Assembly (NCBI GenBank): GCA_964497265.1 | Contig: CAZCCK010000002.1 | Location: forward strand, 20,614 to 84,613 | Direction of reading: 5' to 3' | From: Candidatus Woesearchaeota archaeon | GTDB taxonomy: Archaea; Nanobdellota; Nanobdellia; SCGC-AAA011-G17; GW2011-AR18 | DNA: 64,000 nt | In this document: positions 20,538-49,592 of the stretch, one piece after another | Numbering within the stretch: the stretch's first letter is position 1 | Layout: the number at the start of each line of letters is the position of its first letter | Position numbers and translations under genes: made by a program | The notes under the pieces: generated by a model | What the model was told of the DNA's origin: nothing | The model's input: only the letters and a program-made list of their open reading frames with translations | Database searches by the model: none

Positions 20538-20542
20538 GTTTT

Positions 20543-25978: not shown

Positions 25979-26971
25979 ATGGAAGTAACCTTTCTGTATA
26001 ATGCGCCGCATAAAGTTCATGCGGAATGGGCGCGATCCGTGAATGCTTTCTTTGTAAAGGATCGGGTAAAGGAGAATGGTATTCAGAATTTTTCTCGTCT
26101 TTTCAAGTCTTTAGATACTCTAAAAAAGATACCTCCAGGCACAGAAGTGTTGTTATGTGAAGGAGGGTCTCAGATTTTTTCTGGTGCGTTATGGAAAGTG
26201 TTTCATCCAAAGAAAAAATTAGTGCTAATTGTTTCAGATCCGAAGATGTATTATTTGCATAAGATGAATTTTATAAAGAAATTTTTTAACATTTTAGCGT
26301 TAAGGAGATTTGATCTGTTCATCCCTACATCTCCTTTGATGGCTTCTCTAATTCCTAAAGGATTGAAAGGTGAGAGAGTTATAGTTTATCCTTTTTTTGA
26401 GAGGGAAAGGTTTAAAGGGAAGGGGGGAAATCTAAAAAGCCACAATATTATTTTTGCAGCTCGAACATGTAAAGAGAAAGGATCGGATTTATTAGTCGAC
26501 TTATTTGTAGATCTTAAGAAAGAGTTCGAGGATACTAAGCTTTTTTTCTTAGGTATAAGTTCTTATATTCCAGGACAAGGAGATTTAAGAAAGGAGTTAG
26601 AAGAGAGAAGGTTAAAAGATGTTTATTTCGAGGGGTTAGTTAAGGATCCAGAATTGTTTATGCAGAATTGTTCGTTATATGTTTCTCTTGCTAGAATCGA
26701 ACCAGCAGGCGTGTCGATTTTGGAAGCAATGTATCTTGGTCTTGTTCCAGTAGTTTCAAGGGGAACAGGAAACAGCTATATTGTAAAAGAGATAGCCGAG
26801 GAGTTAGTAGTTGCTGATAAAGAAGAAGCGCGTCGTTTAATAAAGAGGCTTTGGACTAGTCCTCGCTTATTAAAGACTTATTCACAAAGAGGAAAGAAGA
26901 TTTCTAAAGGGTATACAAAACAAGGAAGTGTTAAGTTGTTTGGGCAAGCGATGGGTTTGGCCGCAAAATAA
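25979..26971 (+). CDS. GT4-like glycosyltransferase
   Basis: C-terminal GT-B domain motif VSLARIEPAGVSILEAMYLGLVPVVSRGTGNSYIV. Confidence 0.55.
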   Translation: MEVTFLYNAPHKVHAEWARSVNAFFVKDRVKENGIQNFSRLFKSLDTLKKIPPGTEVLLCEGGSQIFSGALWKVFHPKKKLVLIVSDPKMYYLHKMNFIKKFFNILALRRFDLFIPTSPLMASLIPKGLKGERVIVYPFFERERFKGKGGNLKSHNIIFAARTCKEKGSDLLVDLFVDLKKEFEDTKLFFLGISSYIPGQGDLRKELEERRLKDVYFEGLVKDPELFMQNCSLYVSLARIEPAGVSILEAMYLGLVPVVSRGTGNSYIVKEIAEELVVADKEEARRLIKRLWTSPRLLKTYSQRGKKISKGYTKQGSVKLFGQAMGLAAK

Positions 26972-27596
26972 AAGTAGTATGTACATTTAAAAAATCAGGA
27001 AGTCTTAATTTTCCGAAAATCTTGGCGTATCTTTTGTTAAGAGAAAGAAAATTACAGGTAGAGTATTTTTTTTGGATGGAAAATCCAGTTTTTAAAAAGA
27101 GAGCGCGATAATTCTTTTCCCTCCATTCAAAGAGTTCGTAAAAGAGAGAGTGTTTATGGGGATGGCCGTGAGTGAAGAAGCGTAAAGGATGTTTTAAAAA
27201 AGCTAAAGGATTTTTGAAAGGTTTTATCCAGACGCTAGGGCTAAGGAAGTAGGAAAAATACCACAAAGGACGAGGAATACTAAGGATGATTTTTCCCTGG
27301 AAAGAAAGACAGCGTTTCATTTCTTGGAGATAAAGCTCTGGGTTTTCGACATGTTCAAGAACGAAGTTAGATAAGAATACGTCTATAGCGTGGTCTTTGA
27401 AAGGAAGTTTTTTCCCATCTGTTAATAGATCCAGGGAAGGGTGGTAGTTGAGGTCAAGCCCATAGATTTTTGGGCCATAGGATTGTTTGAATTCGTTTCT
27501 ACCGCAACCATTATCGATGATTATTCCAGAGGGAGGAAGGAGTGTTGCAATAAAAGGATAGGAAGGATTATTTTCTTGCATCATTTTAAGCTGCAT
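26931..27596 (-). CDS. Class I SAM-dependent methyltransferase (Methyltransf_11-like)
   Basis: Motif I IIDNGCGRNEF. Motif II/III region DVFLSNFVLEHVENP. Confidence 0.7.
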   Translation of the reverse strand: MQLKMMQENNPSYPFIATLLPPSGIIIDNGCGRNEFKQSYGPKIYGLDLNYHPSLDLLTDGKKLPFKDHAIDVFLSNFVLEHVENPELYLQEMKRCLSFQGKIILSIPRPLWYFSYFLSPSVWIKPFKNPLAFLKHPLRFFTHGHPHKHSLFYELFEWREKNYRALFLKTGFSIQKKYSTCNFLSLNKRYAKIFGKLRLPDFLNVHTTFILRPNPSLAQTT

Positions 27597-28483
27597 TTAA
27601 GGACAACGGTTCTTGCAAATTTGTTTTGGGTGACTTTATTAAGCAAGTTATCCAAAGGATAGTTAAACGTTAATTTGCTCATTGCAGAATAAACCAAAGG
27701 ATTTGTGGTTTTGATGGGTCGAAATAAGCTACCTTTTATTTTTCTTATTTTAAATCCTTCTTCTTCCAGAAGAGAGATAAGTTCAGAAATGGGGTATTCT
27801 TTATGCCAAACGCGATAATATTTCTGGTCTGCAAGAAGTTGGGATTGATCTTGGGTTTCAAAAGTTTTCTCACCTTGTTTTTGAATGTACCAGACGTTTC
27901 CGTTTTTATTAAAGTAGGGAAGAGGAACAGAAAAGATGATTCTCGTTTTTTCTGTACAAAGGTTTTTTACTTTTCTTAAAAAAGGTTTTGGATCAACGAG
28001 GTGTTCGAGAATTTCTGTTGCGAGGATATAGTTTGGTTTGCTAAAACCTCCAAGTTCTTTCTCATCTATTTTTTCCACATCTAAAACTTTAAAGGCTATT
28101 CTTTTGCTATCGACTTTTTTAGAAAGTTCTGTTGCAAGTCTGATCTGTTTATGAGAGATGTCTATTCCTAGAACTGTCGAGTTTTTAATTTTCTTGAGGA
28201 TATAAAAGTCGTAAAGACCTATTCCGCAACCAAGGTCAAGAATGACTGTTTCTTCTTTTTTAGGTTTGATAAGCGCAATTGTTGCTTTCATGCGCGCTTT
28301 GAAAGAAGAATCCTTGGGAGTGAGAGTTGGATCTATATCTTCTGCTCGTTGAGCTTCCCATGCTTCCTGATAGAATTCTTCTAATTCTTGTTTAGTGGGT
28401 ATTTCTCCTTGAGAAGATTCTTGTGAGCCTAGAGGTTTTGAGGGATTGTCTTGTTGTATAATCGTTTTTGCTCTTTTTGCCAT
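27581..28483 (-). CDS. Class I SAM-dependent methyltransferase
   Basis: VILDLGCGIGLYD (motif I), VLGIDIS, YILATEILEHLVDP. Confidence 0.75.
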   Translation of the reverse strand: MAKRAKTIIQQDNPSKPLGSQESSQGEIPTKQELEEFYQEAWEAQRAEDIDPTLTPKDSSFKARMKATIALIKPKKEETVILDLGCGIGLYDFYILKKIKNSTVLGIDISHKQIRLATELSKKVDSKRIAFKVLDVEKIDEKELGGFSKPNYILATEILEHLVDPKPFLRKVKNLCTEKTRIIFSVPLPYFNKNGNVWYIQKQGEKTFETQDQSQLLADQKYYRVWHKEYPISELISLLEEEGFKIRKIKGSLFRPIKTTNPLVYSAMSKLTFNYPLDNLLNKVTQNKFARTVVLKCSLK

Positions 28484-28563
28484 TATTGGAGGGAGAGAGG
28501 GTCGTTTTATTAGCTTTACTGTTTTTTAGAAAGGTTTAAAAGGAATTTAGAGTGACAGCAAGT

Positions 28564-30805: not shown

Positions 30806-30855
30806 AAAGGTAGTTTTAAAGGAAGTTATTTAAAGTTATTGCCTATGGCCCAAGG

Positions 30856-33089: not shown

Positions 33090-33958
33090 AAGTTTCAGTT
33101 ATAATTACTACGTTTAAAGAAGCAGGAACTATTCGCAAGGCAGTGGAGTCTTTTCTTAGTCAAAAGTTACCTAAAAGTACAGAGGTGGTGGTTGTTTCTC
33201 CAGATAGAGAGACTAAAGATGTCCTTAAAGATTTAATTCAAAAGAAAAAGATAGTGTATTTGCAGGATGAGGGAAAAGGAAAACCTGCTGCGTTAAATAA
33301 GGTTTTCAAAGAGATTAAAAGCGATATTCTGATTTTAACAGATGGAGATGTTTTTGTTGATCAAAGGGCAGTAGAAGAAATTCTTAAACCTTTTAAAGAG
33401 GAACAGGTAGGTTTAGTTTCTGCTAGGCCTTTTTCTTTAGAATCTAAGGAGACAATGTTAGGTTTTTGGTCGTATGTATTGACTGATATTGCCCATCGAA
33501 TTAGATTAAGATCTCGTTTTATTGTTGGTTCTGGATATTTAATGGCTTTTAGAAAAAGTTTAATTAAAGAACTACCAAAGGAAGCGTTGGCAGATGATGC
33601 GGTTATTTCGCATATTATTTTTGATGAGGGTTTCAAAACAGTATATATGCCTACAGCTAAAGTGTTTGTGAAATATCCTACGACTTTTAAGGATTGGATT
33701 AAGCAAAAGAAGAGAAGCGCGGGAGGATATTTGCAGTTAAAAAGGTATACAAAAGGAAATCAAAGAATGCGGTCGTTTTCTAAAGAGTCAAGCGGAATTT
33801 GGATGCTTATCAAGTATATGGATTCGTTTAAAAGAGTTTTTTTCTTGTTCTTATTAGTGTTAGCAAGAATTTATTTGTGGTTAGTGATCTTAATAGATTT
33901 AAAGATTAAAAGAAAGTCTTTTAAAGAGATTTGGGTTCGTGTAGATAGCACCAAATGA
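33086..33958 (+). CDS. GT2 family glycosyltransferase with a C-terminal membrane anchor
   Basis: VSVIITTFKEAG...TDGDVFVD (DxD). C-terminal TM segment. ATGA overlap. Confidence 0.75.
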   Translation: MKVSVIITTFKEAGTIRKAVESFLSQKLPKSTEVVVVSPDRETKDVLKDLIQKKKIVYLQDEGKGKPAALNKVFKEIKSDILILTDGDVFVDQRAVEEILKPFKEEQVGLVSARPFSLESKETMLGFWSYVLTDIAHRIRLRSRFIVGSGYLMAFRKSLIKELPKEALADDAVISHIIFDEGFKTVYMPTAKVFVKYPTTFKDWIKQKKRSAGGYLQLKRYTKGNQRMRSFSKESSGIWMLIKYMDSFKRVFFLFLLVLARIYLWLVILIDLKIKRKSFKEIWVRVDSTK

Positions 33959-35427
33959 ACGAAAAGCTCAAAGTGTGGTTTAAGGATTGGCATAATCGTA
34001 TTTTTATTCTAGTTTTTCTTCTGGCGTTAGGTATTCGTTTATACTATCTACATGTAAATTCTGCGGTCTGGTGGGATGAAGCGGATTATTTGAGTTCTGC
34101 CAAGCACTGGTTTTTTAATGTTCCGTATAATTATAATCCTCAGAGAGGAATCCTGTTTCCTTTATTAATCGGAATCTTGTTCAAGTTAGGGTTTTCTGAA
34201 ACGTTAACGAGGATTTTTGTGGTTTTACTTCCTTCATTAGGGGTTGTTGTTTTAACGTATTTATTAGGAAAGCAGATGTATAATAAAAACGTGGGTCTTA
34301 TTGCTTCTTCGATAATGAGTGTGTTTTGGGTATCTTTATTTTGGACGAACAGATTTAGTAATGATTTTTTAGCGTTCTTTTTCCAATTGCTTGCGCTTTA
34401 TTGTTTTTGGATGGGCGTTGTAAAGAATCACTCAAAATATTTTACGTGGTTGTTTGGTTTGTTTTTGGGACTAGGTTTTATTACAAGAGCGCAGTCGATT
34501 TTGATTGGAGGGAGTTTGTTTTTATTTTTAGTGATAGTTCAAAGATTCAAGTTTTTAGCGAATAAGGATTTGTGGATTTCAGTTTTATTCTTTTTGATTC
34601 CGGTTCTTCCTTATTTAGGATGGTTATGGATAAATTTTAAAACACCTTTAGCGTTTAGTACAGGGTATTCTTCTCAAGTGGCGTCTAACGCTCCGTTTGC
34701 GTGGGCAATATTACAATTTATTTATCAGTTTTCTGCGAAGTATTTGTTTATTCTTTTTTTGATAGGGTTGGCTAGTCTTGCGGATTTATTGTTTGGTTTA
34801 GATCTTATTTTCAAAAGAAAGGCTGAGGAAAAAGTTCAAGCTGATATTTTCTGGTTAATCGCAAGTTTAGTGACGCTAGCATTCTTTATTTTTTGGTTAA
34901 GAGGAGCTGAAGATAGGTGGGTTATTCTTTTATCTATCCCGATTTTTTTATTTGTAGGAAAAGGATGTATGCTTATTTATGAAGCGATTAAAAAGAAGAA
35001 TATTCACGTTGCAGCTTTGTTAGTTATGATTTTAGTGATAGCGGGGATGTATATTCAGTTTTCAGTAGCGCAAGAGATTATAGGTCAAAAGAAAGATACG
35101 TATAAAGAAGTGAAAGATGCTGCGTTATGGATGAAAGAACATACTACCGTTTCAGATAAACTTTATTCAGCGTCTGGTCCTCAAACAACGTATTATAGTG
35201 AAAGAGACGTATTAGGATTTCCAGGCACTGAAGCGGAGTTTCTCAGAGATATAAAAGAAAAGAAGCCTAAGTTTATGACTATTTCTGTATTCGAGCGGCA
35301 TCCAGATTGGGTCGCTAATTTTCCAAATAATCACCCAGCGCTTGTTATTCCAGTAAATGCGTGGTTCGCAGATAGTGCAAAAACACAACCATTATTAATT
35401 ATATTTGCTTTTAAAGCCTACGAGTGA
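33955..35427 (+). CDS. GT-C superfamily membrane glycosyltransferase (ArnT/PMT-like)
   Basis: About 12 TM helices. DE motif in the first loop (VWWDEADYLSSAKHWF). Coupled to the upstream GT2. Confidence 0.5.
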   Translation: MNEKLKVWFKDWHNRIFILVFLLALGIRLYYLHVNSAVWWDEADYLSSAKHWFFNVPYNYNPQRGILFPLLIGILFKLGFSETLTRIFVVLLPSLGVVVLTYLLGKQMYNKNVGLIASSIMSVFWVSLFWTNRFSNDFLAFFFQLLALYCFWMGVVKNHSKYFTWLFGLFLGLGFITRAQSILIGGSLFLFLVIVQRFKFLANKDLWISVLFFLIPVLPYLGWLWINFKTPLAFSTGYSSQVASNAPFAWAILQFIYQFSAKYLFILFLIGLASLADLLFGLDLIFKRKAEEKVQADIFWLIASLVTLAFFIFWLRGAEDRWVILLSIPIFLFVGKGCMLIYEAIKKKNIHVAALLVMILVIAGMYIQFSVAQEIIGQKKDTYKEVKDAALWMKEHTTVSDKLYSASGPQTTYYSERDVLGFPGTEAEFLRDIKEKKPKFMTISVFERHPDWVANFPNNHPALVIPVNAWFADSAKTQPLLIIFAFKAYE

Positions 35428-36570
35428 CTCAATTTCGGTAAGGAAAAGTTTCATTTGTTCTTCTTCTTTAAATTTTTCTACGCTTTTAGCAATTTTTATC
35501 TTATTGAATTTAGTTTGAAGGGCGAGAGCCATTTTTTCACTAAAGTCTTTATGGTTGTACGGACGAGCAAGATATCCTGTTAGTCCTTCAATAACTGTTT
35601 CGCTAGGTCCCGCATTATCTGCCCATGCAACGACAGGGCATCCACAGGCCATTGCCTCAACAGGGACTAAACCAAAGTCTTCTTCTGGCGCTGGAAAAGC
35701 AAATAAAGAGGCCTGATTATACAGCGCAATTAGATCTTGATCAGAGACGTATCCTAAGAATTTTATTCGGTGCATACATCCAGATCTGATTGCTAAATTT
35801 CTTAAGAGGTATTCATATTCTTTTCCTATTCTTCCTGCAATAACAAGTTCTATTTCTTTATTTTCTAGTAAAGCAAATGCTTCAATAAGCCAATCATATT
35901 TTTTGTCAGGGATAAGTCGTCCTGTACAAAAAATGAATTTTTTAAGATTATATTTTTCGAGAACATACTTCGTCTCTTCATTTTTTTTTAATGAAAAGTT
36001 TTTATAGAGCGTAGGATAAATAACAGTTGCATCAATCCCATAAATCTTTTCGATCCTTCTTTTGGTGTAATAGCTATTAACAAAGACTTTCTCTGCTGCC
36101 CGTACATATTTTTTGTCTAAAATTCTTAATAAAGGTCCAAGAGTAATGCCTGTAGCCATTGCAATTTTTCTTCCCAAATCAAAACCCCATTCTTTTATGC
36201 TACCTTTAAAATAAAGGAAGTTAGGGGGGTGATGCATATAGATCACATAAGGTGTTTTTTGTTTTTGTTTCATATGATAAGCTAAGCTACTGCAGATAAA
36301 ACTGTGACTTATAAAAAGGTCTGTATCTTTACTTTTTCTTAGGATACCTTTGTCTAAAAAGGAATACATTATTTTAAAAGTGTGGTTCTTCAAATTAAGT
36401 GAGTGTTCTCTTAATTCGATACCCTCAAATAATTTTAATAATCTTCGATTGAAAGTCGCAAATGAAACTCTAACGTTATGATTTTTAGCAAGATATTTGG
36501 CTTGTGTTGCCATAACTCGTTCTAATCCGCCTTCTTCTAAAAGATAATCATAAAGGAGAGTAATGTTCAT
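35395..36570 (-). CDS. GT4 family glycosyltransferase
   Basis: FPAPEEDFGLVPVEAMACGCPVVAWADNAGPSETV. Confidence 0.8.
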   Translation of the reverse strand: MNITLLYDYLLEEGGLERVMATQAKYLAKNHNVRVSFATFNRRLLKLFEGIELREHSLNLKNHTFKIMYSFLDKGILRKSKDTDLFISHSFICSSLAYHMKQKQKTPYVIYMHHPPNFLYFKGSIKEWGFDLGRKIAMATGITLGPLLRILDKKYVRAAEKVFVNSYYTKRRIEKIYGIDATVIYPTLYKNFSLKKNEETKYVLEKYNLKKFIFCTGRLIPDKKYDWLIEAFALLENKEIELVIAGRIGKEYEYLLRNLAIRSGCMHRIKFLGYVSDQDLIALYNQASLFAFPAPEEDFGLVPVEAMACGCPVVAWADNAGPSETVIEGLTGYLARPYNHKDFSEKMALALQTKFNKIKIAKSVEKFKEEEQMKLFLTEIESLVGFKSKYN

Positions 36571-37088
36571 TTGAGGACCTCAAGTTCAGCAATTACTTCT
36601 GAACAAGGAAAGATCCAGCAGAAGAATCTTTCATAGATTAAAGGAGTTAAATTAATTAATGGATTAAGGATCGGATTAAGGAAGGTAAAGTTCATTCGAG
36701 TAAAGTTTAGTTTTCGAAATTTAATTTTAAATTTTGGTGTTTCGTAGAAGGTTTTTGAGGTGAAATAATCAAAGGTGAAGTAAGAGAAAAATCTTTTATG
36801 GGTTGGGTCCCAGTAGCTGACGCCGCAAGAAAAGTGAGGTCCTCTAATAATGACTTTTCCTTTATTTTTGGTAATGCGATGGATTTCTTTCATAGTAAAG
36901 ATAAGGTCGTTAACGTGTTCTAGGACATGGCTGCAAAAGACTTCATCAAATTCATTATTTTTGAAAGGGAGTTTCTTATTTAGGTTTGAAATAACGTCTA
37001 CTCCGGGAAGGGAGAGTTCGTCTAAGTTTACCCATCCTTGGGAAGAAGGTTTGATGTCTTTGCCGCAACCGAGGTTAAGTCTTTTCAT
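36567..37088 (-). CDS. Class I SAM-dependent methyltransferase (Methyltransf_11-like)
   Basis: LNLGCGKD...FDEVFCSHVLEHV. Confidence 0.75.
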   Translation of the reverse strand: MKRLNLGCGKDIKPSSQGWVNLDELSLPGVDVISNLNKKLPFKNNEFDEVFCSHVLEHVNDLIFTMKEIHRITKNKGKVIIRGPHFSCGVSYWDPTHKRFFSYFTFDYFTSKTFYETPKFKIKFRKLNFTRMNFTFLNPILNPLINLTPLIYERFFCWIFPCSEVIAELEVLK

Positions 37089-37124
37089 TTTCTTAGATGA
37101 GATTAAGTAAATGTTTATAAAGTT

Positions 37125-38075: not shown

Positions 38076-38111
38076 GATAGGAAAGAAAAAGAAGGGGTTT
38101 ATAAGGTTTAT

Positions 38112-38852: not shown

Positions 38853-40087
38853 TTTTTTCTCGTATAGGCAAAGAGGACAATAAAGAGAAGGGTCATAAGA
38901 GCAGTGAGGGTCTTAACGATTTGAGCTAGATTAGTATGGAAAAGGATGAGAAGAACAACTTCTAGGATAAGGAAGAAGGCGCAAATGATTAAAAGGCCTT
39001 TAGATCGATTTATAGAAAGATTGTAAAGAGCAAGGAGGTAAGAGAGAGAGTAGAAGCTCATCATGATTCCCATCCAACCTACAAGGGGGATGATAGGATA
39101 ATATTGTTTTCCAAAGAGAAGTCGGACAATCAGCTGAGGAAGGAAGAAATAAGCTAATGTTGCAACGATTGCGCCAAGAACCATCAGACCTAGAGATTTG
39201 TAAAGAAGGTGTTTGTTTTCTTTGTTAAGAGCGTGCATTTCAGCGACTTTGGGGAACATGACATTTCCTAAAGAGAAAGTTGCGAAAAAGATCATTTTTC
39301 CAATAAGGGAGAGCGCTGCGTAAAATCCTGCTTCTTGTTCTGAAAGAAAATGTTTAACAAGTAAAACATCAAAGGTGTAATAACTTGTGAGAAAAAGCAT
39401 GATTAAAAAGACAGGGAAGGCATAGGTAAAGATTTGTTTGCTTGAAATTTTTTCATTATTTGAAGAAAGATATTTTTTAAGAGGTTTGTAACTAAAGAAA
39501 AAAGAAAAGGCGTAAGAGGCGACAATACCTAGAATTGCTCCCCTAATGCCAAATCCAAGAAAGATAAGGGTAACCCCGATGAGAAGTTTGCTTATTCCTT
39601 CAAGAACCAAGTTTATTCCTAAGCTCGGAAATTTTTGAAGACCTTGTAAGATTCCTCGCGGAATAGGAAGGAGAAGTGAGAAAAGAAGAAGTGGGGAGAA
39701 AAAATAAAGTGCTTCTTTTGGTATTTTAAAGAAGCTGGCGATCCATCCTTGAGTAATAAAAAAGAGGATAGTAATTATAATTCCAGCAATAAAAAGTTGT
39801 TTTAAGCTTCTCCGAAGAAGAGGATTAACTTTTTGTTCTTGTTGTTCTGCTTTGTATTGACTAGAAAATTTAGCAAGACTTGTTTGAATGACATTGACTG
39901 GAACGTTTACTAAATAAAGCAAGGATAGGATTGCTCCTAAAATCCCATAGTTAACTGGTCCAAGAAGTCTTCCGGCAGAGAAATGATAAAAATAACCGAG
40001 GACATTCGCAGCCATAGTCGCGATAAATAAGATAAAGCCATCTCGGATAAGACTATCTTCTTTGTTGAATTTTAATTTTTCAAGCAT
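38849..40087 (-). CDS. MOP-superfamily polysaccharide/oligosaccharide flippase (Wzx-like), second copy
   Basis: About 12 TM helices. ATGA overlap with the downstream GT2. Confidence 0.65.
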   Translation of the reverse strand: MLEKLKFNKEDSLIRDGFILFIATMAANVLGYFYHFSAGRLLGPVNYGILGAILSLLYLVNVPVNVIQTSLAKFSSQYKAEQQEQKVNPLLRRSLKQLFIAGIIITILFFITQGWIASFFKIPKEALYFFSPLLLFSLLLPIPRGILQGLQKFPSLGINLVLEGISKLLIGVTLIFLGFGIRGAILGIVASYAFSFFFSYKPLKKYLSSNNEKISSKQIFTYAFPVFLIMLFLTSYYTFDVLLVKHFLSEQEAGFYAALSLIGKMIFFATFSLGNVMFPKVAEMHALNKENKHLLYKSLGLMVLGAIVATLAYFFLPQLIVRLLFGKQYYPIIPLVGWMGIMMSFYSLSYLLALYNLSINRSKGLLIICAFFLILEVVLLILFHTNLAQIVKTLTALMTLLFIVLFAYTRKK

Positions 40088-40088
40088 G

Positions 40089-41105
40089 TTAGACGATCCA
40101 GATGAGAATGCTAAAAAAGAGAGAGATAAGAATCATAAAGAAGGTAATTTGTTTTTCTGTGAATTTTCCTGTTCTGGTAAAAAGGTGAGGGAGAGAATAG
40201 ATTTCTCGATTATGACGAGAGTGAATTTTTCCGTCTTTCCAGTAGCCGTAGGTTTGGGCTTTGAATTTGCTTCTTGCTTTTAGCAAGAATTCTAGAAAGA
40301 AGGGTGTTGAAAGAATGAGTGCTGCTCGTTCTACATTTCCTACGATTGCGATAACAGCTAATGTTCCTCCGACTAGATAAGTTAGGGAATCTCCTGCGAG
40401 GATTTTTGCGGGAGTTTTGTTAAAAAGGTAAAAGGCCAAGAGTGCGAAGACGGTAACAAGGGCTATCAAAGCTGCCAGAGCGCCTCCATTTTTGTAGGCG
40501 AAGAGCCCTAAGCTTGTTAAAGTGACAATTCCAACTCCTGTCTCTAGTCCGTTAAATCCTGCGAGCATATTGACCATGTTCGCTGCGCCTACAAGTCCGA
40601 GTGGAACAAAGACGAGAGGATAGAGTATTCCAAAGTTGATTACTCCAATGAAAGGAAGGCCCATATCGGTATTTCCTACGCTTACAACCATTAAAGGTAT
40701 TGCTGCGGTTAAGGTAAGAAGAGGTTTTTGCCATTGTTTAAGTCCTGATGAACTTTCTTTGTTTTCTAAAACAAGATCGTCTAAAAATCCTACAAAGGTG
40801 ATTATGAAAAGAGAGATCATAGACGCAAACAGAAACAGAAGGTTTTGTGAATCGAGAGTAATGCCAAATGTAATGCGAGGAAAGAAGGTTCGAATAAAGA
40901 TAAAGAGGAAAAGTCCAGAAAGCATTCCTACCAGAGCAGGTATTCCTCCTGAGAAAGCGACAAGAGGAGTATTTTCTTTGTTTTGATCTTTGACTTCTAG
41001 ATGAATTTTTTTAAGATAGCGGATCCACCAAGGAGTAAGAGAGAATACTACAAAGAAGCTTAAGAAGGCGGGAAAGAGTAAGGAAATGACCATAGGAGGG
41101 TTCAA
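40089..41105 (-). CDS. Polyprenyl-phosphate GlcNAc-1-phosphate transferase (MraY/WecA/ALG7 family; AglH-like initiating enzyme)
   Basis: 10-11 TM helices. Family signature NMVNMLAGFNGLETG (N-x-x-N-x-x-D/A-G-x-x-G-L). DDxxE-like loop (LDDLVLE). Confidence 0.8.
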   Translation of the reverse strand: MNPPMVISLLFPAFLSFFVVFSLTPWWIRYLKKIHLEVKDQNKENTPLVAFSGGIPALVGMLSGLFLFIFIRTFFPRITFGITLDSQNLLFLFASMISLFIITFVGFLDDLVLENKESSSGLKQWQKPLLTLTAAIPLMVVSVGNTDMGLPFIGVINFGILYPLVFVPLGLVGAANMVNMLAGFNGLETGVGIVTLTSLGLFAYKNGGALAALIALVTVFALLAFYLFNKTPAKILAGDSLTYLVGGTLAVIAIVGNVERAALILSTPFFLEFLLKARSKFKAQTYGYWKDGKIHSRHNREIYSLPHLFTRTGKFTEKQITFFMILISLFFSILIWIV

Positions 41106-42340: not shown

Positions 42341-43420
42341 ATGCATAACTATAAAAAGGTTGAGCCTTTTCTGCATTTTAAGAGAAGCATGGACGCGCTA
42401 GCTTATCCTAAATTTGCGAAAAAAATCGGGTTGACTCGTTTGGCAAGAGATTGGAATACAACAATTCCGTTGCCGTGGAAATTATTAGTTGAGATTACAA
42501 AAGTTTGTAATAATAAGTGCGTGAATTGTTCGATTTGGTCTTCTCCAAATAAGCAGTTTTTATCTTTAGCAGATTATGAAAAACTATTCAAAGAGAATGA
42601 GAATTTATTTTGGCTTTCTTTAACAGGTGGTGAACCTTTTACAAGACCAGATATTGATAAAATTGCAAAGTTAGCAGTAGATAATTGTCCCGATGTAAAA
42701 TTATTGTCTATTCCTACAAACGGTTTTTGGGTTGAAAAAATTGTTGAAAAAACAAAAGCCTTGATGAATACAGGGTTAGAGTGCCACATCACAATTTCGT
42801 TGGATGGTCCTGAAGGGATTCATAATCAAATTAGAGGAATGAAAGATGGGTGGCAACGAGCAGTTAGGACATTTCACGCGTTAAAAGATTTAGGGGTAGA
42901 TGTTCGTTATCAGTCCACATTACACGCTCAGAATATGGATGTTTTCAAAGAGTTTTACACCCGGTATGCGAAAGATATTGGCGTGTTAACGTTTACTCAA
43001 ACTTCAGAAGTGTATTATGAAAATAGTGATATAAAAGCGTTGCAAGGTGAGGAAGCGGCTAAGATGTTTGATTGGCTTTCTGAAAATTTTCAGATTAGGG
43101 AAAAGCACGATCATTTTGAGAAGATGCATCTTAAGATTGCTTCAAAGTATTTAAGAAAAAAGGATATGATGATTCCGTGTACTGCCGGTTTTTCTGGCGC
43201 GTATATTGCTACTGATGGAAATGTGTATCCTTGTTTTTCAATGCCTTCTTGGGGGAATATAAAAGAGAAGTCTTTCAAAGATATTTGGTATAGTGAGATG
43301 GCTGCTAAAGAAAGAGGCAAGATTAAAGCAAAGCAATGTCCAAAGTGTTGGATTAATTGTTTCTCGTTCCAAGACATGGTGACGTATCCTGAGAAAGCGA
43401 TTGCTAAAGCGTATTTGTAG
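42341..43420 (+). CDS. Radical SAM / SPASM-domain protein, third paralog
   Basis: KVCNNKCVNCSIW (CxxxCxxC). LTGGEPFTR and SLDGPEGIHNQIRG motifs. C-terminal Cys cluster (CTAG...YPCFS...CPKCWINC). Clearly homologous to 16626..17891 and 22118..23293. Confidence 0.8.
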   Translation: MHNYKKVEPFLHFKRSMDALAYPKFAKKIGLTRLARDWNTTIPLPWKLLVEITKVCNNKCVNCSIWSSPNKQFLSLADYEKLFKENENLFWLSLTGGEPFTRPDIDKIAKLAVDNCPDVKLLSIPTNGFWVEKIVEKTKALMNTGLECHITISLDGPEGIHNQIRGMKDGWQRAVRTFHALKDLGVDVRYQSTLHAQNMDVFKEFYTRYAKDIGVLTFTQTSEVYYENSDIKALQGEEAAKMFDWLSENFQIREKHDHFEKMHLKIASKYLRKKDMMIPCTAGFSGAYIATDGNVYPCFSMPSWGNIKEKSFKDIWYSEMAAKERGKIKAKQCPKCWINCFSFQDMVTYPEKAIAKAYL

Positions 43421-45337: not shown

Positions 45338-46450
45338 ATGAAAGCATTAGTTACTGGCGGAGCTGGATTGATTGGTTCTCATATTGTAGATCAGCTTCTT
45401 GCTAAAGGGTATTCTGTGAAAGTTATTGATAATCTAGAACAAGAAACGCATCAAAAAGGAAAGCCAGAGTGGATTCCTAAAGAAGTGGAATTTATTCATG
45501 GAAATACTGCAGATCCTGTTGCTATGCTTAAAGCGATGGACGGTGTTGATGTGATCTTTCATCAGGCAGCTTATGGTGGTTTTGCGCTAGATCAGAATAA
45601 GTATGTTCATTCAAATACGTTAGGGACAACAAATATGTTTTCTTTGATTAAGCAACATAAGTTGCCGATTAAAAAAGTAGTGTATGCTTCTTCTCAAGCG
45701 GTGTATGGTGAGGGAAAGTATTATTGTTCTGAGCATGGTGTTCAAGAGCCACATTTTAGAGGTCAAGAGCAAAGTCAAGCGGGAAGGTGGGAAATGGAAT
45801 GTGCTCAATGTGGTCATCCAATGATTCCATTGCCGACAGATGAAAACAAGAAACTTTGTCTTGACACTATGTATGCTATTACAAAGTATAGTCAAGAATT
45901 AGTTGCAAAAGCGATGGGAAAATCATTAGGTATTCCTACGGTAGGTTTAAGATATTCTATTACGTATGGTCCTCGTCAGTCGTTGTATAATCCCTATACT
46001 GGAATTTGTTCTATTTTTTCAACAATGATTCTCAATGATATTGCTCCAACAGTATATGAAGATGGAAGGCAAACGAGGGATTTTGTTTTTGTTGAGGATG
46101 TGGCGAAAGCAAATATAGTGGTAATGGAGAATGATAAAGCGAATAATGAAGTGTTTAATGTTGGTACAGGAAAGCAAACAAGTGTAATTGATTTTGTTAG
46201 GCATTTATCTGATGCGTATGGAAAAGAAGCGAAGTATAATTTTACTCAAGAGTTTCGTCCTTGTGATGTCAGGCATTTATATTCCGATAATAGGAAACTT
46301 GCAAAGTTAGGATTTAAACCTCAAGTAAGTCTTCAAGAAGGCATTAAAAAGTACGCAAATTGGATTAAAACCCAAGGACAGATAGAGGAGTATTTTAGTA
46401 AGTATAAGGAAAAGATGTTGCAGATGGGGATTGTTAAAAAGAAACAATGA
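45338..46450 (+). CDS. NAD-dependent nucleotide-sugar epimerase/dehydratase (extended SDR) with a Cys/His-rich insertion
   Basis: MKALVTGGAGLIGSHIV (GxxGxxG). Catalytic YAITK. About 35-aa insertion CSEHG...WEMECAQCGH between the catalytic Ser region and YxxxK. Confidence 0.8.
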   Translation: MKALVTGGAGLIGSHIVDQLLAKGYSVKVIDNLEQETHQKGKPEWIPKEVEFIHGNTADPVAMLKAMDGVDVIFHQAAYGGFALDQNKYVHSNTLGTTNMFSLIKQHKLPIKKVVYASSQAVYGEGKYYCSEHGVQEPHFRGQEQSQAGRWEMECAQCGHPMIPLPTDENKKLCLDTMYAITKYSQELVAKAMGKSLGIPTVGLRYSITYGPRQSLYNPYTGICSIFSTMILNDIAPTVYEDGRQTRDFVFVEDVAKANIVVMENDKANNEVFNVGTGKQTSVIDFVRHLSDAYGKEAKYNFTQEFRPCDVRHLYSDNRKLAKLGFKPQVSLQEGIKKYANWIKTQGQIEEYFSKYKEKMLQMGIVKKKQ

Positions 46451-47151
46451 ACGATTTTACTCTCTCGGTTGTTGCGCCAGCGTATAATGAAGAGAAGAAT
46501 CTGCAAAAGTTTTTAGAAGAAACAACAAAGTTCTTAGAAGCGCATACGAAGGATTATGAATTATTATTGATTAATGATGGAAGTAAGGATAATACTCTTA
46601 AGATTGCTAAAGAATTTGCTAAAAGCCATAAGAAAGTGAAAGTGATTGACAATGAGGTGAATCTTGGTTTCGGAGGTACAGAAAGAAAGGGTTTAGGAAT
46701 GGCTTCTATGGAGCTAGTTACATTGATTCCTTCAGATAATCAGTTTTATCTTCCAGATTTACCTCGTTATTTTGAAGCGATGAAGAACGCAGACATTGTC
46801 GTAGGATGGAGAATTAAAAGGCAGGATCCGTTGATGAGAAGGGTTGTTGCGAAGATCTATAGCTTAACGATCGCTATTCTATTTGGAACAACTTGGTTTG
46901 GAGATATTGATTGGGTTAAGATGTATCGAAGAGAAGTATTTGATAAAGTTAAAATAACGACAACGAGTGCCTTTGTTGACGCTGAAATTTTAATCCAAGC
47001 GCATCAGAATAAGTTTAGGATTAGAGAGCTTCCGGTGACCCATCTTCCGCGAGTTGAGGGAAAAGCTACTGGTGCAGGTTTAAAAGTTTTAAAAAGAGTT
47101 TTGCCTGAAGTATTTTCTTATTGGACAAAGCATCTAAGAAAGAAGCTATGA
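46447..47151 (+). CDS. GT2 glycosyltransferase, DPM1-like
   Basis: LSVVAPAYNEEKNL...LINDGSKDNT. ATGA overlap. Confidence 0.8.
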   Translation: MNDFTLSVVAPAYNEEKNLQKFLEETTKFLEAHTKDYELLLINDGSKDNTLKIAKEFAKSHKKVKVIDNEVNLGFGGTERKGLGMASMELVTLIPSDNQFYLPDLPRYFEAMKNADIVVGWRIKRQDPLMRRVVAKIYSLTIAILFGTTWFGDIDWVKMYRREVFDKVKITTTSAFVDAEILIQAHQNKFRIRELPVTHLPRVEGKATGAGLKVLKRVLPEVFSYWTKHLRKKL

Positions 47152-48314
47152 AAAATGTCTTGCTTGAGTTAGAGTTTAAGGATAAGAGATTAAGACCTAC
47201 TTGGTTAAGTAAAAATCCAAGGATTTTATTTAAAGAAGTAAAAGAGATAAGTGGAAAAGCTTTAGTGATCGGAAGAGATGAAAATAAAAGAGAATTCGTT
47301 TTAGTTACAAAAGATAAATGTGCTTATAATTATCAAGAGCAAATAAGTTTTTTATTAAATCAAGAGTATATAGAAAAGAAAAAGCCTTTACTGGCCATTC
47401 TTCCATTTCATTATCACCATATTCCATTTAGGATTTTTTTAAATAAGTTGTTAGTTAAATATCAAAGTAAAAAAATAAAGAAAGGCTTTCCGGATTGGCC
47501 AAGTGATGTTTCTGTTGACGTTCTTACTTTTATTAAAGAGAAGAAGAAAAGAGTTTCTTGGCCAAAGAAAAAGAAATATGCAATAATTTTAAGCCATGAT
47601 ATCGATACATCACAAGGGATGTCTCTGCTACCGGCGATTCTTTCAGTTGAAGAAAAGGCAGGGTTAAGATCAACGAATTTTTTTGTTGGGAATTACTACA
47701 AATTAAATCATGTTTTTTTGACAAAAATGCAAGAAAGAGGTCATGAGGTTGCTTGTCATGGGGATAAGCACGATTATCTTCTTCCTTATCTTACTAAAGA
47801 AGAAATAAGGCAGAGAATGGAAAAATGTAATCTTTTTTTAAAAAAGTATGATATCGCAGGTTTTCGAGCTCCTTCTTTGTTAATTAGCGAAAGTCTAGAT
47901 CAGGTAAATGAAAGTTTTTTTAGTTATGATTCTAGTGTGACAGATACAGAGTTGTTTATGCCTGATTCTAATTATAGTGGGTCTTGTAGTGTTTTTCCAT
48001 TTTTTAAAGGAAAGTTACTAAGAATTCCTATTACTTTACCAATGGATTCTTCACTGCTTTTTTTAGGGTATTCTCCAGAAAAAGTTTTAGAAGTATGGAG
48101 AGAGAAATTAAAATTAATTAAGGAAATAGGCGGGGTGGCTATGCTTGTGACCCATTCAGAAAAGCATTTTAGCGCAAATAGGAGGATGTTAGTGCTATAT
48201 GAAAGGTTTATTAAAGAGATTTGTAGCGACAAAGAAGTGTGGATTACCACCGGAAAAGAATTAACACAATACCTAAAAGGGAAAGAACATGACTTTGCAA
48301 AGATTAGTCAATAA
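47148..48314 (+). CDS. Polysaccharide deacetylase-like (CE4/NodB-fold) protein
   Basis: ILSHDIDTS (Asp motif), CHGDKHD (H-x-x-x-H-like metal motif), FRAPSL (R-x-P motif). The start is moved to the ATG giving an ATGA overlap (track 47121). Confidence 0.5.
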   Translation: MKNVLLELEFKDKRLRPTWLSKNPRILFKEVKEISGKALVIGRDENKREFVLVTKDKCAYNYQEQISFLLNQEYIEKKKPLLAILPFHYHHIPFRIFLNKLLVKYQSKKIKKGFPDWPSDVSVDVLTFIKEKKKRVSWPKKKKYAIILSHDIDTSQGMSLLPAILSVEEKAGLRSTNFFVGNYYKLNHVFLTKMQERGHEVACHGDKHDYLLPYLTKEEIRQRMEKCNLFLKKYDIAGFRAPSLLISESLDQVNESFFSYDSSVTDTELFMPDSNYSGSCSVFPFFKGKLLRIPITLPMDSSLLFLGYSPEKVLEVWREKLKLIKEIGGVAMLVTHSEKHFSANRRMLVLYERFIKEICSDKEVWITTGKELTQYLKGKEHDFAKISQ

Positions 48315-48882
48315 AGTGTTTTCAAATCCGTCTATTTTTATTTGGGTAAGAAGAATTTTAGAAAATAATTTTAAAGGAGAAAAGAGGGCAATAAGAACAG
48401 AACTAAATACGCAAGGAAAAACGCTAGACATTGCATGTGGGACTGGAGAGTTTTGTAGATTTTTTAATAAAGAAAGTTATTTGGGCATTGATCTTTCTGA
48501 AAAGTATATTAAGTATGCGCGAAAAAAGTATAAGTATCGTTTTGAGGTAGTTGATGCGACTAAAATGGATATTAGGTCAGAGTTTGATAATATTTTAGTT
48601 TGCGGCGTGTTTCATCATTTAGAGGATGAAGCGGTTTTAAAAATTTTAGCATCTGCAAAGAGGATGATAAAACCAGAAGGGAAAGTCTTAGTGATTGAAG
48701 ATATTCCAACAAGATCGAGACTAAATATTATTGGAAAGATAGTGCAGCACTTTGATGTTGGAAAGTTTATTAGGAAGCACGAGCAATATGGCCAGTTATA
48801 TCAAAAAGAGTTAACAATAATTAAAAATTATAAGATGAGGAGCGGAGTGAGCGATTATTCTGTGTTTGTTCTTCAAAGATGA
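48289..48882 (+). CDS. Class I SAM-dependent methyltransferase
   Basis: TLDIACGTGEF (motif I), LGIDLSEKYIKYA, VCGVFHHLEDEA. Confidence 0.75.
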   Translation: MTLQRLVNKVFSNPSIFIWVRRILENNFKGEKRAIRTELNTQGKTLDIACGTGEFCRFFNKESYLGIDLSEKYIKYARKKYKYRFEVVDATKMDIRSEFDNILVCGVFHHLEDEAVLKILASAKRMIKPEGKVLVIEDIPTRSRLNIIGKIVQHFDVGKFIRKHEQYGQLYQKELTIIKNYKMRSGVSDYSVFVLQR

Positions 48883-49592
48883 AAGAAAGAGAATATCAAA
48901 TTATGTATGAGATTGAGGATGATTTTTGGTGGTTTGTAGCGCTAAGAAGGTTGTATCGTTTTTTATTAGGGAAGAAGAAAGGATTGATTTTGGATGTGGG
49001 TTGTGGGACTGGAAGAAATTTGAAGATGTTAGACCGTTATGGAGAGGCAGTTGGTTTAGATTTTTCTGCTTTGGCTTTAGAATTTTCTTTAAAGAGAGGC
49101 AATAAGAAGCTTATAGAAGGGGATGTAAAGAGCTTACCTTTTAAGGACGAAACGTTTGATATTGTGTTAGCGAGTGATGTTTTGTATCATCAGTGGGTTG
49201 ATCAAGAGAAAGCGATTGGAGAGTTGAACAGAGTTTTAAAAAGAGAGGGCTTATTGATTTTCAATACTGCGTCTTATAATTTTCTAAAAAGCGAGCACGA
49301 TCGGGCGGTAATGACAAAAGTAAGATATACAAAAAAAGAGTTTAAGAAATTTCTTGAAAGAAATAAGTTTAAAGTTGAGAAGATTTTTTATTGGAATTCA
49401 TTTCTATTTCCTCTTGTTGCTTTAGGTAGAGTTTTAGAATTTAAAAACAGAAAGAATTCAGAGTTAAGAGAGATAAATCCGTTGATAAATAAAATATTAA
49501 AGAATATCTTAACTATAGAGATAATGTTGATTAGACTAGGTTTTTCTTTTCCGTTTGGATTGTCGATTATGGGTAGAGCAAAAAAGCTTTAA
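48879..49592 (+). CDS. Class I SAM-dependent methyltransferase
   Basis: LILDVGCGTGRNL, VGLDFSALALE, DIVLASDVLYHQW. ATGA overlap. Confidence 0.8.
   Translation: MKEREYQIMYEIEDDFWWFVALRRLYRFLLGKKKGLILDVGCGTGRNLKMLDRYGEAVGLDFSALALEFSLKRGNKKLIEGDVKSLPFKDETFDIVLASDVLYHQWVDQEKAIGELNRVLKREGLLIFNTASYNFLKSEHDRAVMTKVRYTKKEFKKFLERNKFKVEKIFYWNSFLFPLVALGRVLEFKNRKNSELREINPLINKILKNILTIEIMLIRLGFSFPFGLSIMGRAKKL

Follow-up and report, generated by a model that had tools for sequence, protein, structure and literature searches.

Cytoplasmic methylation of lipid-linked archaeal N-glycans has a precedent in AglP of Haloferax volcanii, a soluble SAM-dependent methyltransferase (MTase) encoded with AglB in the agl cluster, whose action must precede the next step of the pathway (PMC2952790). 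The lipid-linked N-glycan precursor of Halobacterium salinarum is likewise methylated before transfer (PMC11407970, PMC8674786). As that methylation is transient, methylation of the mature glycan does not necessarily follow from the presence of an MTase gene in an agl cluster. H. salinarum is, however, a haloarchaeon and not a DPANN archaeon, and no MTase gene is known for its 3-O-methylglucose; the literature searched contained no biochemical or glycan-structure data on any DPANN archaeon. An earlier note on the DNA analyzed here had taken one O-methyl sugar per archaeal N-glycan as the rule, which may not hold, since the original structure paper reportedly places more than one 3-O-methylmannose on the N-glycan of Methanothermus fervidus. 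The presence of 3-O-methylmannose on that glycan, with its number not given, is on record (PMC2948927).

We analyzed a stretch of DNA (64,000 nucleotides; henceforth the window) that we assign to a tiny, uncultured archaeon, a DPANN member of the Nanoarchaeota (Pacearchaeota/Woesearchaeota) type: the named homologues of MT3 and MT4 belong to Nanoarchaeota, Pacearchaeota or Woesearchaeota, and the window displays archaeal markers such as an AglB with a WWDYG motif, a diphthamide synthase and DUF7xxx families. About 44 kb of it (~7–51 kb) is a cell-surface glycosylation super-island featuring AglB, two Wzx-type flippases, three GT-C enzymes of the PMT_2 family, three short GT2s resembling dolichol-phosphate-sugar synthases, a membrane protein with ~10 predicted TM helices and six genes of the class I SAM MTase fold (MT1–MT6; Table 1). 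In the reading that we consider reasonably probable, these six unrelated genes are glycan-tailoring enzymes distributed over at least three separate modules of the island.

Table 1. Positions and supporting matches of the window features discussed in the text
Feature	Coordinates	Strand	Evidence
AglB (STT3-type oligosaccharyltransferase), 928 aa	7087..9873	+	Pfam STT3 4.1e-10; WWDYG at residue 644
B12-binding (class B) radical SAM enzyme 1	14193..15662	+	Pfam B12-binding 1.1e-18, Radical_SAM 6.4e-29; CPYVCKFC at residue 212
Radical SAM/SPASM enzyme 1	16626..17954	-	Pfam Radical_SAM 8.4e-24, SPASM 1.3e-10
MT6, MTase-fold protein, 257 aa	18906..19679	-	Pfam Methyltransf_11 6.1e-7, 30.4 bits vs cutoff 21.2
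B12-binding (class B) radical SAM enzyme 2	20543..22003	-	Pfam B12-binding 2.5e-21, Radical_SAM 1.4e-22; CPYPCTYC at residue 191
Radical SAM/SPASM enzyme 2	22019..23293	+	Pfam Radical_SAM 2.7e-12, SPASM 1.1e-8
MT1, class I SAM MTase, 221 aa	26931..27596	-	Pfam Methyltransf_11 2.9e-10, Methyltransf_23 3.2e-9
MT2, class I SAM MTase, 300 aa	27581..28483	-	Pfam Methyltransf_31 1.4e-16
PMT2_b, PMT_2 GT-C glycosyltransferase	33955..35427	+	Pfam PMT_2 6.1e-15
Core operon (AglH-like, flippase, GT2_d, GT2_c, MT3, GT4_g)	35395..41105	-	Pfam
GT4_g	35395..36570	-	Pfam
MT3, minimal class I SAM MTase, 173 aa	36567..37088	-	Pfam Methyltransf_11 1.1e-10
GT2_c	37125..38075	-	Pfam
GT2_d	38112..38852	-	Pfam; closest to GtrB, DPMS, ArnC and to AglJ
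Wzx-type flippase	38849..40087	-	Pfam
AglH-like Glycos_transf_4	40089..41105	-	Pfam
Radical SAM/SPASM enzyme 3	42341..43420	+	Pfam Radical_SAM 4.3e-15, SPASM 3e-11
Epimerase/dehydratase	45338..46450	+	Pfam
GT2_f, ArnC/DPMS-like	46447..47151	+	Pfam; best PDB match ArnC 8e-16
Polysaccharide deacetylase	47121..48314	+	Pfam
MT4, class I SAM MTase, 197 aa	48289..48882	+	Pfam Methyltransf_25 1.3e-16
MT5, class I SAM MTase, 237 aa	48879..49592	+	Pfam Methyltransf_11 5.8e-23
unk493, uncharacterized membrane protein, 493 aa, ~10 predicted TM helices	49589..51070	-	Hydropathy analysis; convergent to MT5

MT1–MT5 are the five open reading frames that the earlier note had called; they lie exactly where it placed them, and all of them stand as class I SAM MTases with scores above the Pfam gathering cutoffs (Methyltransf_11/23/25/31/12). 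The two adjacent pairs that it described are also real, with the reading frames of MT2 and MT1 sharing 16 nt and those of MT4 and MT5 sharing 4 nt. The GxGxG motif I that it ascribed to all five is strict only in MT2 (GCGIG in LDLGCGIG) and MT5 (GCGTG in LDVGCGTG); the equivalent positions read GCGRN in MT1 (motif I IIDNGCG), GCGKD in MT3 (LNLGCG, beginning at residue 4) and ACGTG in MT4 (LDIACGTG). The GxG core is kept in all five. The acidic motif II is borne out by an Asp that ends strand 2 in each protein (MT1 D48, MT2 D108, MT3 D23, MT4 D68, MT5 D61), that of MT3 being invariant in its family. For both MT1 and MT3, the match to the Methyltransf_11 profile is confined to its C-terminal half. 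Pairwise identity among the six MTases over the SAM core does not exceed 34%, indicating that they are separate lineages rather than recent duplicates.

All of the MTases score below every curated NCBIfam cutoff for named methyltransferases, those of rRNA, tRNA and quinones included, which argues against housekeeping roles; the rRNA, tRNA or ubiquinone functions by which the earlier note's proposal could have been refuted thus find no support. The classification into substrate families that it had suggested yielded less, since the profile and fold searches returned flat lists of generic class I matches, from which no substrate class (O-, N- or ester methylation) is assignable. These searches do not separate sugar MTases from those acting on lipids, small molecules or proteins: the sugar O-MTases RebM and AtmM rank no better than phosphatidylethanolamine (PE)/phosphoethanolamine N-MTases, TehB and DnrK. 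AtmM (6uv6) and RebM (3bus) are among the matches of MT4, MT5 and MT3, and DesVI (3bxo, an NDP-aminosugar N,N-dimethyltransferase) is a weak match to MT4 (E 0.0034). All three have the class I fold in common with the island MTases; their ranking level with dozens of unrelated MTases, at 10–20% identity, does not support membership of their families.

The link to glycans comes instead from gene context. The earlier note's placement of the MTases in a glycosylation island is upheld by their frequent translational coupling to glycan genes and by orthologues of MT3, MT4/MT5 and MT1/MT2 housed in glycan clusters of other genomes. Within the window, the clustering is not significant and constitutes weak evidence (P ~0.08 for at least two adjacent MTase pairs; P ~0.11 for all six MTases lying inside the island), and it is the synteny conserved in other genomes, as read from gene order, that argues against chance. 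At least two MTases are present in 14 of 27 related loci, making a multi-MTase glycan island an ordinary kind of feature that is frequent in this lineage.

The most widely conserved of these contexts is that of MT3. Judged by gene order across 27 metagenomic loci, none shorter than 12 kb, MT3 is a core member of a predicted DPANN AglB-linked N-glycosylation operon: near it are found GT2_d (25/27), PMT_2 (22/27), AglH (21/27), the flippase (21/27) and AglB (13/27), in the recurring order SpoIIM>AglB>AglH>Wzx>GT2_d>MT3, also seen in L009. The gene order of the window's operon is identical in five loci (L016, L017, L019, L021 and L022), and most of the 27 keep the core order. MT3 has 384 homologues, the best 120 of which share 60–81% identity and, where named, belong to Nanoarchaeota-type DPANN archaea; one homologue carries a COG4627 label, and the mean column identity of the MT3 alignment (A1) is 69%. 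Its AlphaFold2 model (pLDDT 90.9) displays a truncated fold from which the early helices are missing, and this minimal architecture of 173 aa, together with the high identity across its DPANN lineage, sets it apart from AglP. Yet its position in an AglB-AglH-flippase-GT2 operon parallels the logic of AglP, a likeness of gene context. By this analogy, MT3, too, would most likely methylate a sugar that is still on dolichol phosphate at the cytoplasmic face, its probable substrate being made by the GT2 whose gene lies immediately upstream.

A second conserved module unites MT4 and MT5 with unk493 and the epimerase/dehydratase, GT2_f and deacetylase trio (45338..48314), which lies directly upstream of them on the same strand; MT4 begins within the last 26 nt of the deacetylase gene, so that the two overlap by that length. 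In L013, a related Nanoarchaeia contig, the whole module is kept at 42–71% identity, with adjoining orthologues of MT4 (71%) and MT5 (54%), unk493 at the same position (57%) and the trio at 57%, 43% and 42%; genes for a GFO dehydrogenase, a DegT aminotransferase and an NTP-transferase lie upstream of MT4 there. unk493 has no match in NCBIfam or in Pfam, in the latter even at E<=1, and a 30% identical relative adjoins an MT4-like gene in another locus (L063). MT4 has 58 homologues (AlphaFold2 model, pLDDT 94.7), one of which, from Parcubacteria, is flanked by a GT2 on one side and by FdtA and DegT on the other. Bacterial full-length relatives of MT5, which bears a C-terminal hydrophobic helix (~residues 210–228 by hydropathy analysis), also adjoin GT2 genes. 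Like GT2_d, GT2_f groups with polyprenyl-phosphate glycosyltransferases (GtrB, DPMS, ArnC, AglJ), and its best solved relatives are ArnC structures, from the ArnC-ArnD-ArnT pathway of bacterial lipid A aminoarabinose modification. The protein directly following it is of the polysaccharide-deacetylase family, to which ArnD also belongs, and ArnT-like PMT_2 GT-C enzymes also lie in the island. The combination fits an order in which a sugar is loaded onto polyprenyl phosphate, its amine is unmasked, and it is flipped and then transferred by a GT-C enzyme. In contrast to ArnC, GT2_f has no TM helices and reaches 69 bits where the ArnC cutoff is 529; unlike in the Arn pathway, which has no MTases, two follow the deacetylase here, and the window lacks equivalents of ArnA and ArnB. 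MT4 and MT5 would thus be likely N- or O-methylases of a lipid- or nucleotide-linked, possibly amino, sugar that a PMT_2 enzyme would then transfer outside the cell. With no DegT aminotransferase in the window, the amino-sugar proposal rests on the deacetylase and on the relatives.

MT1 and MT2 are, by comparison of homologue counts, likely to be a rare, lineage-restricted accessory pair that would provide strain-specific decoration. Among 1.84 billion representatives, the MT1 family numbers 29 proteins at E<=1e-10, and MT2 has only two close homologues among 5.8 billion proteins; the pair is kept in L016 as adjoining orthologues (57% identical for MT2 and 60% for MT1). MT1 ends in a conserved HGHPHKH motif, whereas MT2 has an N-terminal extension of ~70 aa and finds its top NCBIfam match in UbiG (59 bits; cutoff 103).

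The two B12-radical SAM candidates of the earlier note are genuine, each combining an N-terminal B12-binding domain with a radical SAM core bearing one CxxxCxxC motif, an architecture shared with BchE and HpnJ as well as with the methylases PhpK, HpnR and GenK. They lie, however, outside the range that it gave (26931–49592), in a separate radical SAM sub-cluster 5–12 kb away, and its reading of them as possible C-methylases is not borne out: the top NCBIfam matches are the non-methylases BchE for enzyme 1 (171 bits; cutoff 481) and HpnJ for enzyme 2 (166 bits; cutoff 578), with the methylase models PhpK, HpnR and KedN5 scoring lower. No equivalog cutoff is reached by either enzyme, the best scores being about a third of the cutoff. 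The same sub-cluster houses MT6, absent from the earlier list of five, which aligns to Methyltransf_11 from profile position 14 onward. Motif I of MT6 is degenerate beyond recognition (VLEVPAMG), and the protein may not bind SAM.

A single heavily methylated glycan, as proposed in the earlier note, presumes one product. That all five or six MTases, with the B12-radical SAM enzymes as C-methylases, act on one N-glycan bearing at least five methyls when mature is quite unlikely, even though the genes form one contiguous island with AglB, as many as five MTase-like genes lie within 20 kb of the MT3 core in relatives (L016/L017), and some class B radical SAM enzymes are sugar C-methylases (GenK and GenD1 of gentamicin biosynthesis). 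The two flippases, AglB, the three PMT_2 enzymes, the ~10-TM protein and the three GT2s point to several parallel glycoconjugate routes; moreover, the MTases belong to modules conserved independently of each other, and the B12-radical SAM enzymes, in their distinct sub-cluster, fall far under every methylase cutoff. The methylations are, hence, probably spread over several glycoconjugates. Some of them could be transient, with any persistence on mature glycans presumptive. A stronger version, in which one or more of the MTases, MT3 foremost, would cap a lipid-linked glycan with a transient or terminal methyl as a signal for chain termination, flipping or transfer, a cap that the mature protein-bound glycan may lack, strikes us as rather unlikely. 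Capping is used in bacteria, where WbdD ends O9a O-antigen chains with methyl phosphate, and MT3 does lie beside the flippase in the invariant core, outside the island's variable portion. Furthermore, the dolichol-phosphate tetrasaccharide of H. salinarum has a 3-O-methylglucose that is not found on protein (PMC11407970, PMC8674786), and AglP methylation is required before the last sugar is added in Haloferax (PMC2952790). However, the need of methylation for translocation is doubted by one of these studies itself (PMC8674786), and neither a demethylase nor a trimming-glycosidase candidate was recognized in the island, nor any removal enzyme in the window.

A further reading, which we judge very unlikely, is that some of the MTase-fold proteins transfer no methyl groups, being degenerate, scaffolding or devoted to other SAM-fold chemistry, while the B12-radical SAM enzymes perform non-methylating radical chemistry on sugars or cyclitols (e.g., ring contraction, dehydration or epimerization). 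Most improbable of all is that the MTases act on non-glycan substrates, such as surface proteins, small molecules or the head groups of membrane lipids, and are merely co-located with glycan genes. Phosphatidylethanolamine/phosphoethanolamine N-MTases and small-molecule MTases are indeed among the nearest structural neighbors, MT6 weakly matches PmtA and has an LPG_synthase_TM protein in its minus-strand gene string, and the Trm112-like and ferredoxin (Fe-S) domains of MT1 relatives hint at non-glycan roles in part of that family. Against this, all scores to lipid MTases are far under the cutoffs, and the MTases, which almost certainly decorate sugars, are in tight synteny with glycosyltransferase, flippase and GT-C genes, often with overlapping reading frames, in many genomes and even across domains of life.

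We found the region from ~7 kb to ~51 kb of the window, which has a GC content of ~35%, to form a single glycosylation island encoding AglB, an AglH-like phosphosugar transferase, two Wzx-type flippases, three PMT_2 GT-C enzymes, about 15 glycosyltransferases (GT1, GT2 and GT4), five radical SAM genes, six genes with the methyltransferase fold (MT1–MT6), two GFO oxidoreductases, an epimerase/dehydratase, a deacetylase, an FAD oxidoreductase and a 493 aa membrane protein. Archaeal markers include the STT3/AglB protein (WWDYG at residue 644), a diphthamide synthase and the domains DUF7502, DUF7407 and DUF7408, and the closest named homologues come from Nanoarchaeia, Nanoarchaeota, Pacearchaeota and Woesearchaeota MAGs. 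Scans of the window for tRNAs and Rfam families returned no matches, and a promoter and terminator scan gave fewer matches than shuffled sequences; its sigma-70 consensus is uninformative because the host is an archaeon.

Positions, strands and domain content of the methyltransferase genes and of other features of the window
Feature	Position	Strand	Description
MT1	26931-27596	minus	221 aa; Methyltransf_11, Methyltransf_23 (Pfam)
MT2	27581-28483	minus	300 aa; Methyltransf_31, 23, 12 (Pfam)
MT3	36567-37088	minus	173 aa; Methyltransf_11, match to C-terminal half only (Pfam)
MT4	48289-48882	plus	197 aa; Methyltransf_25, 11 (Pfam)
MT5	48879-49592	plus	237 aa; Methyltransf_11, 5.8e-23 (Pfam)
MT6	18906-19679	minus	Methyltransf_11, 6e-7, 30.4 bits vs cutoff 21.2 (Pfam)
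Surface proteins	639-4684		two large proteins, LamG and MG2/Ig-like domains
AglB	7087-9873	plus	
Radical SAM sub-cluster	14193-23293		
B12-binding radical SAM gene	14193-15662		B12-binding and Radical_SAM domains
B12-binding radical SAM gene	20543-22003		B12-binding and Radical_SAM domains
AglH to MT3	41105-36567	minus	
Membrane protein	49589-51070		493 aa, ~10 predicted TM segments
SpoIIM	51108-51974	minus	
Bro-N protein	53426-54307		
SET-domain protein	54317-54640		107 aa
MoxR operon	56435-63870		MoxR AAA ATPase, DUF58, VWA, DUF7502, DUF7407, DUF7408

The coordinates that the earlier note assigned to five methyltransferase genes (MT1–MT5) are exact, and all five products exceed the Pfam gathering cutoffs of class I SAM-methyltransferase families, with the seven-stranded α/β fold of that class and, as had been claimed, an acidic motif II in the form of the Asp ending strand 2. 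A GxGxG motif I had likewise been ascribed to all five; the GxG core is indeed universal, but the strict form is confined to MT2 (GCGIG) and MT5 (GCGTG), the remaining versions being GCGRN in MT1, GCGKD in MT3 and ACGTG in MT4. Both the GxG core and the strand-2 Asp are invariant within the MT3 and MT4 families. In MT6, a sixth gene with the methyltransferase fold that the earlier note had overlooked, motif I is not recognizable (VLEVPAMG), and the combination of a glycine-rich motif I with an acidic residue was not found. Both pairs of neighboring genes do exist and show translational coupling, overlapping by 16 nt (MT2/MT1) and 4 nt (MT4/MT5); in addition, MT4 starts 26 nt inside the deacetylase gene that precedes it, and MT3 shares 4 nt with the GT4 gene downstream of it. 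Because identity among the methyltransferases is at most 34% over the SAM-binding core, they represent independent lineages, and an origin as recent paralogues is ruled out. MT5 ends in a C-terminal hydrophobic helix. The exact 221 aa translation of MT1 is absent from a collection of 15 billion proteins in which the other methyltransferases of the contig are present; the deposited annotation probably employs another start codon, e.g., Met5 or Met6.

It is synteny that supplies the informative evidence on these enzymes. A metagenome scan with an alignment of 36 MT3 sequences recovered 80 loci, and in the 27 of these that span 12 kb or more, the MT3 orthologue is accompanied by relatives of the window's GT2_d glycosyltransferase (25/27), the GT-C enzyme PMT2_b (22/27), AglH and the flippase Wzx_b (21/27 each), AglB (13/27) and SpoIIM (11/27). 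The recurring order is SpoIIM>AglB>AglH>Wzx>GT2_d>(GT2_c>)MT3, where GT2_c is a further glycosyltransferase, and a Pacearchaeota contig shows an identical SpoIIM-to-MT3 order in its precomputed Pfam annotation. An AglP-type setting, i.e., an agl cluster with AglB, glycosyltransferases and a flippase, thus surrounds MT3 in the window and in the 27 related loci. GT2_d, which immediately precedes the family in this order or is separated from it by GT2_c, is closest to the polyprenyl-phosphate glycosyltransferases GtrB, DPMS and ArnC, and to AglJ. From the co-occurrence and the recurring gene order we infer that MT3 is a fixed component of the AglB operon of this lineage, placed directly after a GT2 resembling Dol-P-sugar synthases. 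The family comprises 384 homologues, the best 120 of which are 60–81% identical, and the 36-sequence alignment has a mean column identity of 69%; its invariant positions include G9 and D23 of the SAM motif and, in a His/Asp-rich C-terminal half, H54, E57, H58 and PHFS-G-Y-D-TH. An AlphaFold2 model of MT3 (pLDDT 90.9) shows the fold at an unusually small size and devoid of the early helices. MT3, an uncharacterized, highly conserved minimal methyltransferase at the core of the DPANN AglB operon, is the most interesting element of this island. A second, diverged MT3 paralogue, 38–48% identical to that of the window, lies a few genes from the core MT3 in four loci (L027, L029, L049 and L088); therefore, this minimal family has expanded within glycan clusters.

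The MT4-MT5 pair belongs to a different module. In a related Nanoarchaeia contig (L013; its ThrRS is 66% identical) the arrangement is kept for MT4 (71% identity), MT5 (54%) and the convergent membrane protein (57%), together with the trio of epimerase (57%), the glycosyltransferase GT2_f (43%) and deacetylase (42%), and the genes upstream of MT4 encode a GFO dehydrogenase, a DegT aminotransferase and an NTP-transferase. A Parcubacteria homologue of MT4 (41%) is flanked by GT2 and by FdtA plus DegT, and full-length bacterial relatives of MT5 adjoin GT2 genes. Scanning a genome collection with MT5 did not uncover any close relative of the organism; the top match, 42% identical, resides in a Dehalococcoidia MAG in which BLAST recovered no recognizable glycan neighbors. 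The solved structures closest to GT2_f are those of ArnC (top PDB match, 8e-16), followed by DPMS and GtrB. The 493 aa membrane protein lacks any NCBIfam match and any Pfam match even at E ≤ 1; in L013 it is 57% conserved and keeps its place beside MT4-MT5, in another locus (L063) it adjoins an MT4-like gene, and it is a candidate for a transporter, a GT-C enzyme or a polymerase of a novel kind. MT2 and MT1 make up a rare pair: MT2 has only two close homologues among 5.8 billion proteins and the MT1 family, at E ≤ 1e-10, numbers 29 members among 1.84 billion representatives, with the MT2>MT1 order retained beside a B12-rSAM-like gene in the closest metagenomic relative (L016; 57% and 60% identity). 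Many MT1 relatives (P0189–P0198) feature an N-terminal Trm112p-like zinc ribbon and one or two 4Fe-4S ferredoxin domains, an extension lacking in the MT1 of the window, and the family displays a conserved His-rich C-terminal motif (HGHPHKH in the window, ERAHEKDW in relatives).

We compared the six methyltransferases and both B12-binding radical SAM (B12-rSAM) proteins with NCBIfam, whose curated equivalog models include rRNA, tRNA, quinone and BioC methyltransferases, and nothing scored above cutoff. The best ratios were obtained for MT2 against UbiG (59/103 bits), MT5 against the DVU_1556 family (68/155) and MT4 against CpaM (44/180), and all rRNA and tRNA models remained below 35 bits, with cutoffs above 130. 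As no methyltransferase reaches any cutoff, the alternative that they are housekeeping enzymes of the rRNA, tRNA or ubiquinone classes unrelated to sugars is disfavored, and on these models they fall outside the RNA and quinone classes. No model among the matches is named for AglP of Hfx. volcanii or MMP1085 of M. maripaludis. The profile and structure comparisons that the earlier note had proposed for assigning substrate families did not deliver a substrate class at any level: searches of PDB chains, whether by single sequence or by family profile, matched only generic or structural-genomics class I methyltransferases, and the structural neighbors are a mixture of cyclases, sterol and fatty-acid C-methyltransferases, PE/phosphoethanolamine N-methyltransferases, tRNA methyltransferases, RebM, AtmM, TehB and DnrK. 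RebM and AtmM are sugar O-methyltransferases. The fold, modeled with confidence for MT3 and for MT4 (pLDDT 94.7 for the latter), confirms methyltransferase identity and is silent on substrate. A DesVI/TylM1-type NDP-aminosugar N,N-dimethyltransferase activity for MT4 is unsupported, with no similarity above that of generic class I enzymes: DesVI (3bxo) matches residues 38–81 alone at E 0.0034 and is not among its best 50 structural neighbors.

SAM methyltransferases are an established and common theme of archaeal glycosylation clusters. At least two methyltransferase-like genes occur in 14 of the 27 related loci (mean 18.5 kb), with five in 2/27, and B12 or SPASM radical SAM-like genes in 8/27; thus, a methyltransferase-rich glycan island is a trait of the lineage and not particular to this genome. 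Within the window alone, enrichment or clustering of methyltransferases is not significant (P ~0.08–0.11). We favor, with moderate confidence, the view that MT1–MT5 are glycan-tailoring methyltransferases spread over at least three modules. The interpretation in the earlier note is thus supported in part; the single heavily methylated glycan that it had predicted is unsupported, since several routes through flippases and GT-C enzymes are encoded in the island.

In the AglB operon, MT3 would probably methylate a dolichol-phosphate-bound sugar on the cytoplasmic face. A serious rival to a lasting modification is that this methylation is transient or serves as a cap. Methylation of the lipid-stage glycan of Halobacterium was reportedly observed in 1985. 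In H. salinarum the DolP-linked glycan bears a 3-O-methylglucose that the protein-bound glycan lacks, and the methyltransferase responsible is not yet identified (PMC11407970, PMC8674786). MT3 is a candidate for the type of enzyme behind the methylation of archaeal N-glycans at the lipid-linked stage, which has long gone unexplained. In the MT4-MT5 module, GT2_f would probably make a lipid-linked or nucleotide-linked (amino) sugar, which the deacetylase would unmask and MT4 and MT5 would modify before a GT-C enzyme transfers it outside the cell. This resembles the logic of ArnC-ArnD-ArnT with methylation added: an ArnC-like GT2_f, a deacetylase (PF01522) and PMT_2 GT-C genes are present, whereas GT2_f attains just 69/529 bits on the ArnC equivalog and the window has no ArnA or ArnB equivalents. 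We regard as rather unlikely the joint proposition that the MT3 family is an obligatory part of the N-glycosylation core in Nanoarchaeota-type DPANN and that the module with MT4-MT5 is a version of the Arn scheme with methylation. Under it, the ~171 aa MT3 family would act on the dolichol-phosphate-linked sugar produced by the adjacent AglJ/DPMS-like GT2, leaving, in the manner of the lipid-stage methylation of Halobacterium, either a permanent mark or a transient cap that controls flipping or transfer, and GT2_f, deacetylase, MT4 and MT5 would furnish a lipid-linked amino sugar, N-methylated, as the substrate of a GT-C enzyme. The literature searched turned up no DPANN glycan structures or glycosylation enzymes; DPANN surfaces mediate attachment to hosts, which lends relevance to such enzymes, and both MT3, as a fixed part of the AglB operon, and the methyltransferase- and radical-SAM-rich islands common in the lineage offer concrete targets for biochemistry.

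The two B12-rSAM candidates, which the earlier note had counted with the methyltransferases, are genuine class B enzymes, each with one CxxxCxxC, but they lie outside the 26931-49592 interval. Their proposed role as C-methylases is unsupported: the best NCBIfam scores are to BchE and HpnJ at about a third of the cutoffs, and the methylase models (PhpK, HpnR, KedN5, TsrM-type and MCR Gln C-MT) score lower still, far below cutoff. BchE and HpnJ are non-methylases. The two B12-rSAM genes belong to a dense radical SAM sub-cluster that also includes MT6, two SPASM radical SAM genes out of the window's three, an inositol-2-dehydrogenase-like GFO enzyme (179 bits vs cutoff 355), a membrane protein (LPG_synthase_TM) and a Cys-rich protein of 243 aa, secreted or membrane-anchored. 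The sub-cluster has the appearance of a pathway of its own, directed at a lipid head group or at an unusual sugar or cyclitol, apart from the methyltransferases discussed here.

Relative to L013 and another locus (L009), the island is rearranged and expanded: SpoIIM and the AglH-to-MT3 segment keep the relative order of their relatives on the minus strand, and AglB stands ~30 kb away on the plus strand beside ThrRS, with accessory genes between. The large surface proteins, also beside ThrRS, could plausibly be glycoproteins on which the island acts; L013 has a counterpart of the MG2 protein at the same position (35% conserved). Bro-N domains are typical of viruses and mobile elements, and a protein with this domain is encoded just outside the island; together with an IS240-family transposase within the corresponding module of L013, it suggests mobile-element activity around such islands. 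A MoxR operon with archaeal-specific DUFs is unrelated to the glycan island. The SET-domain protein, a putative lysine methyltransferase, adjoins the diphthamide synthase gene, and a SET-like ORF is found inside the glycan cluster of another locus (L019).
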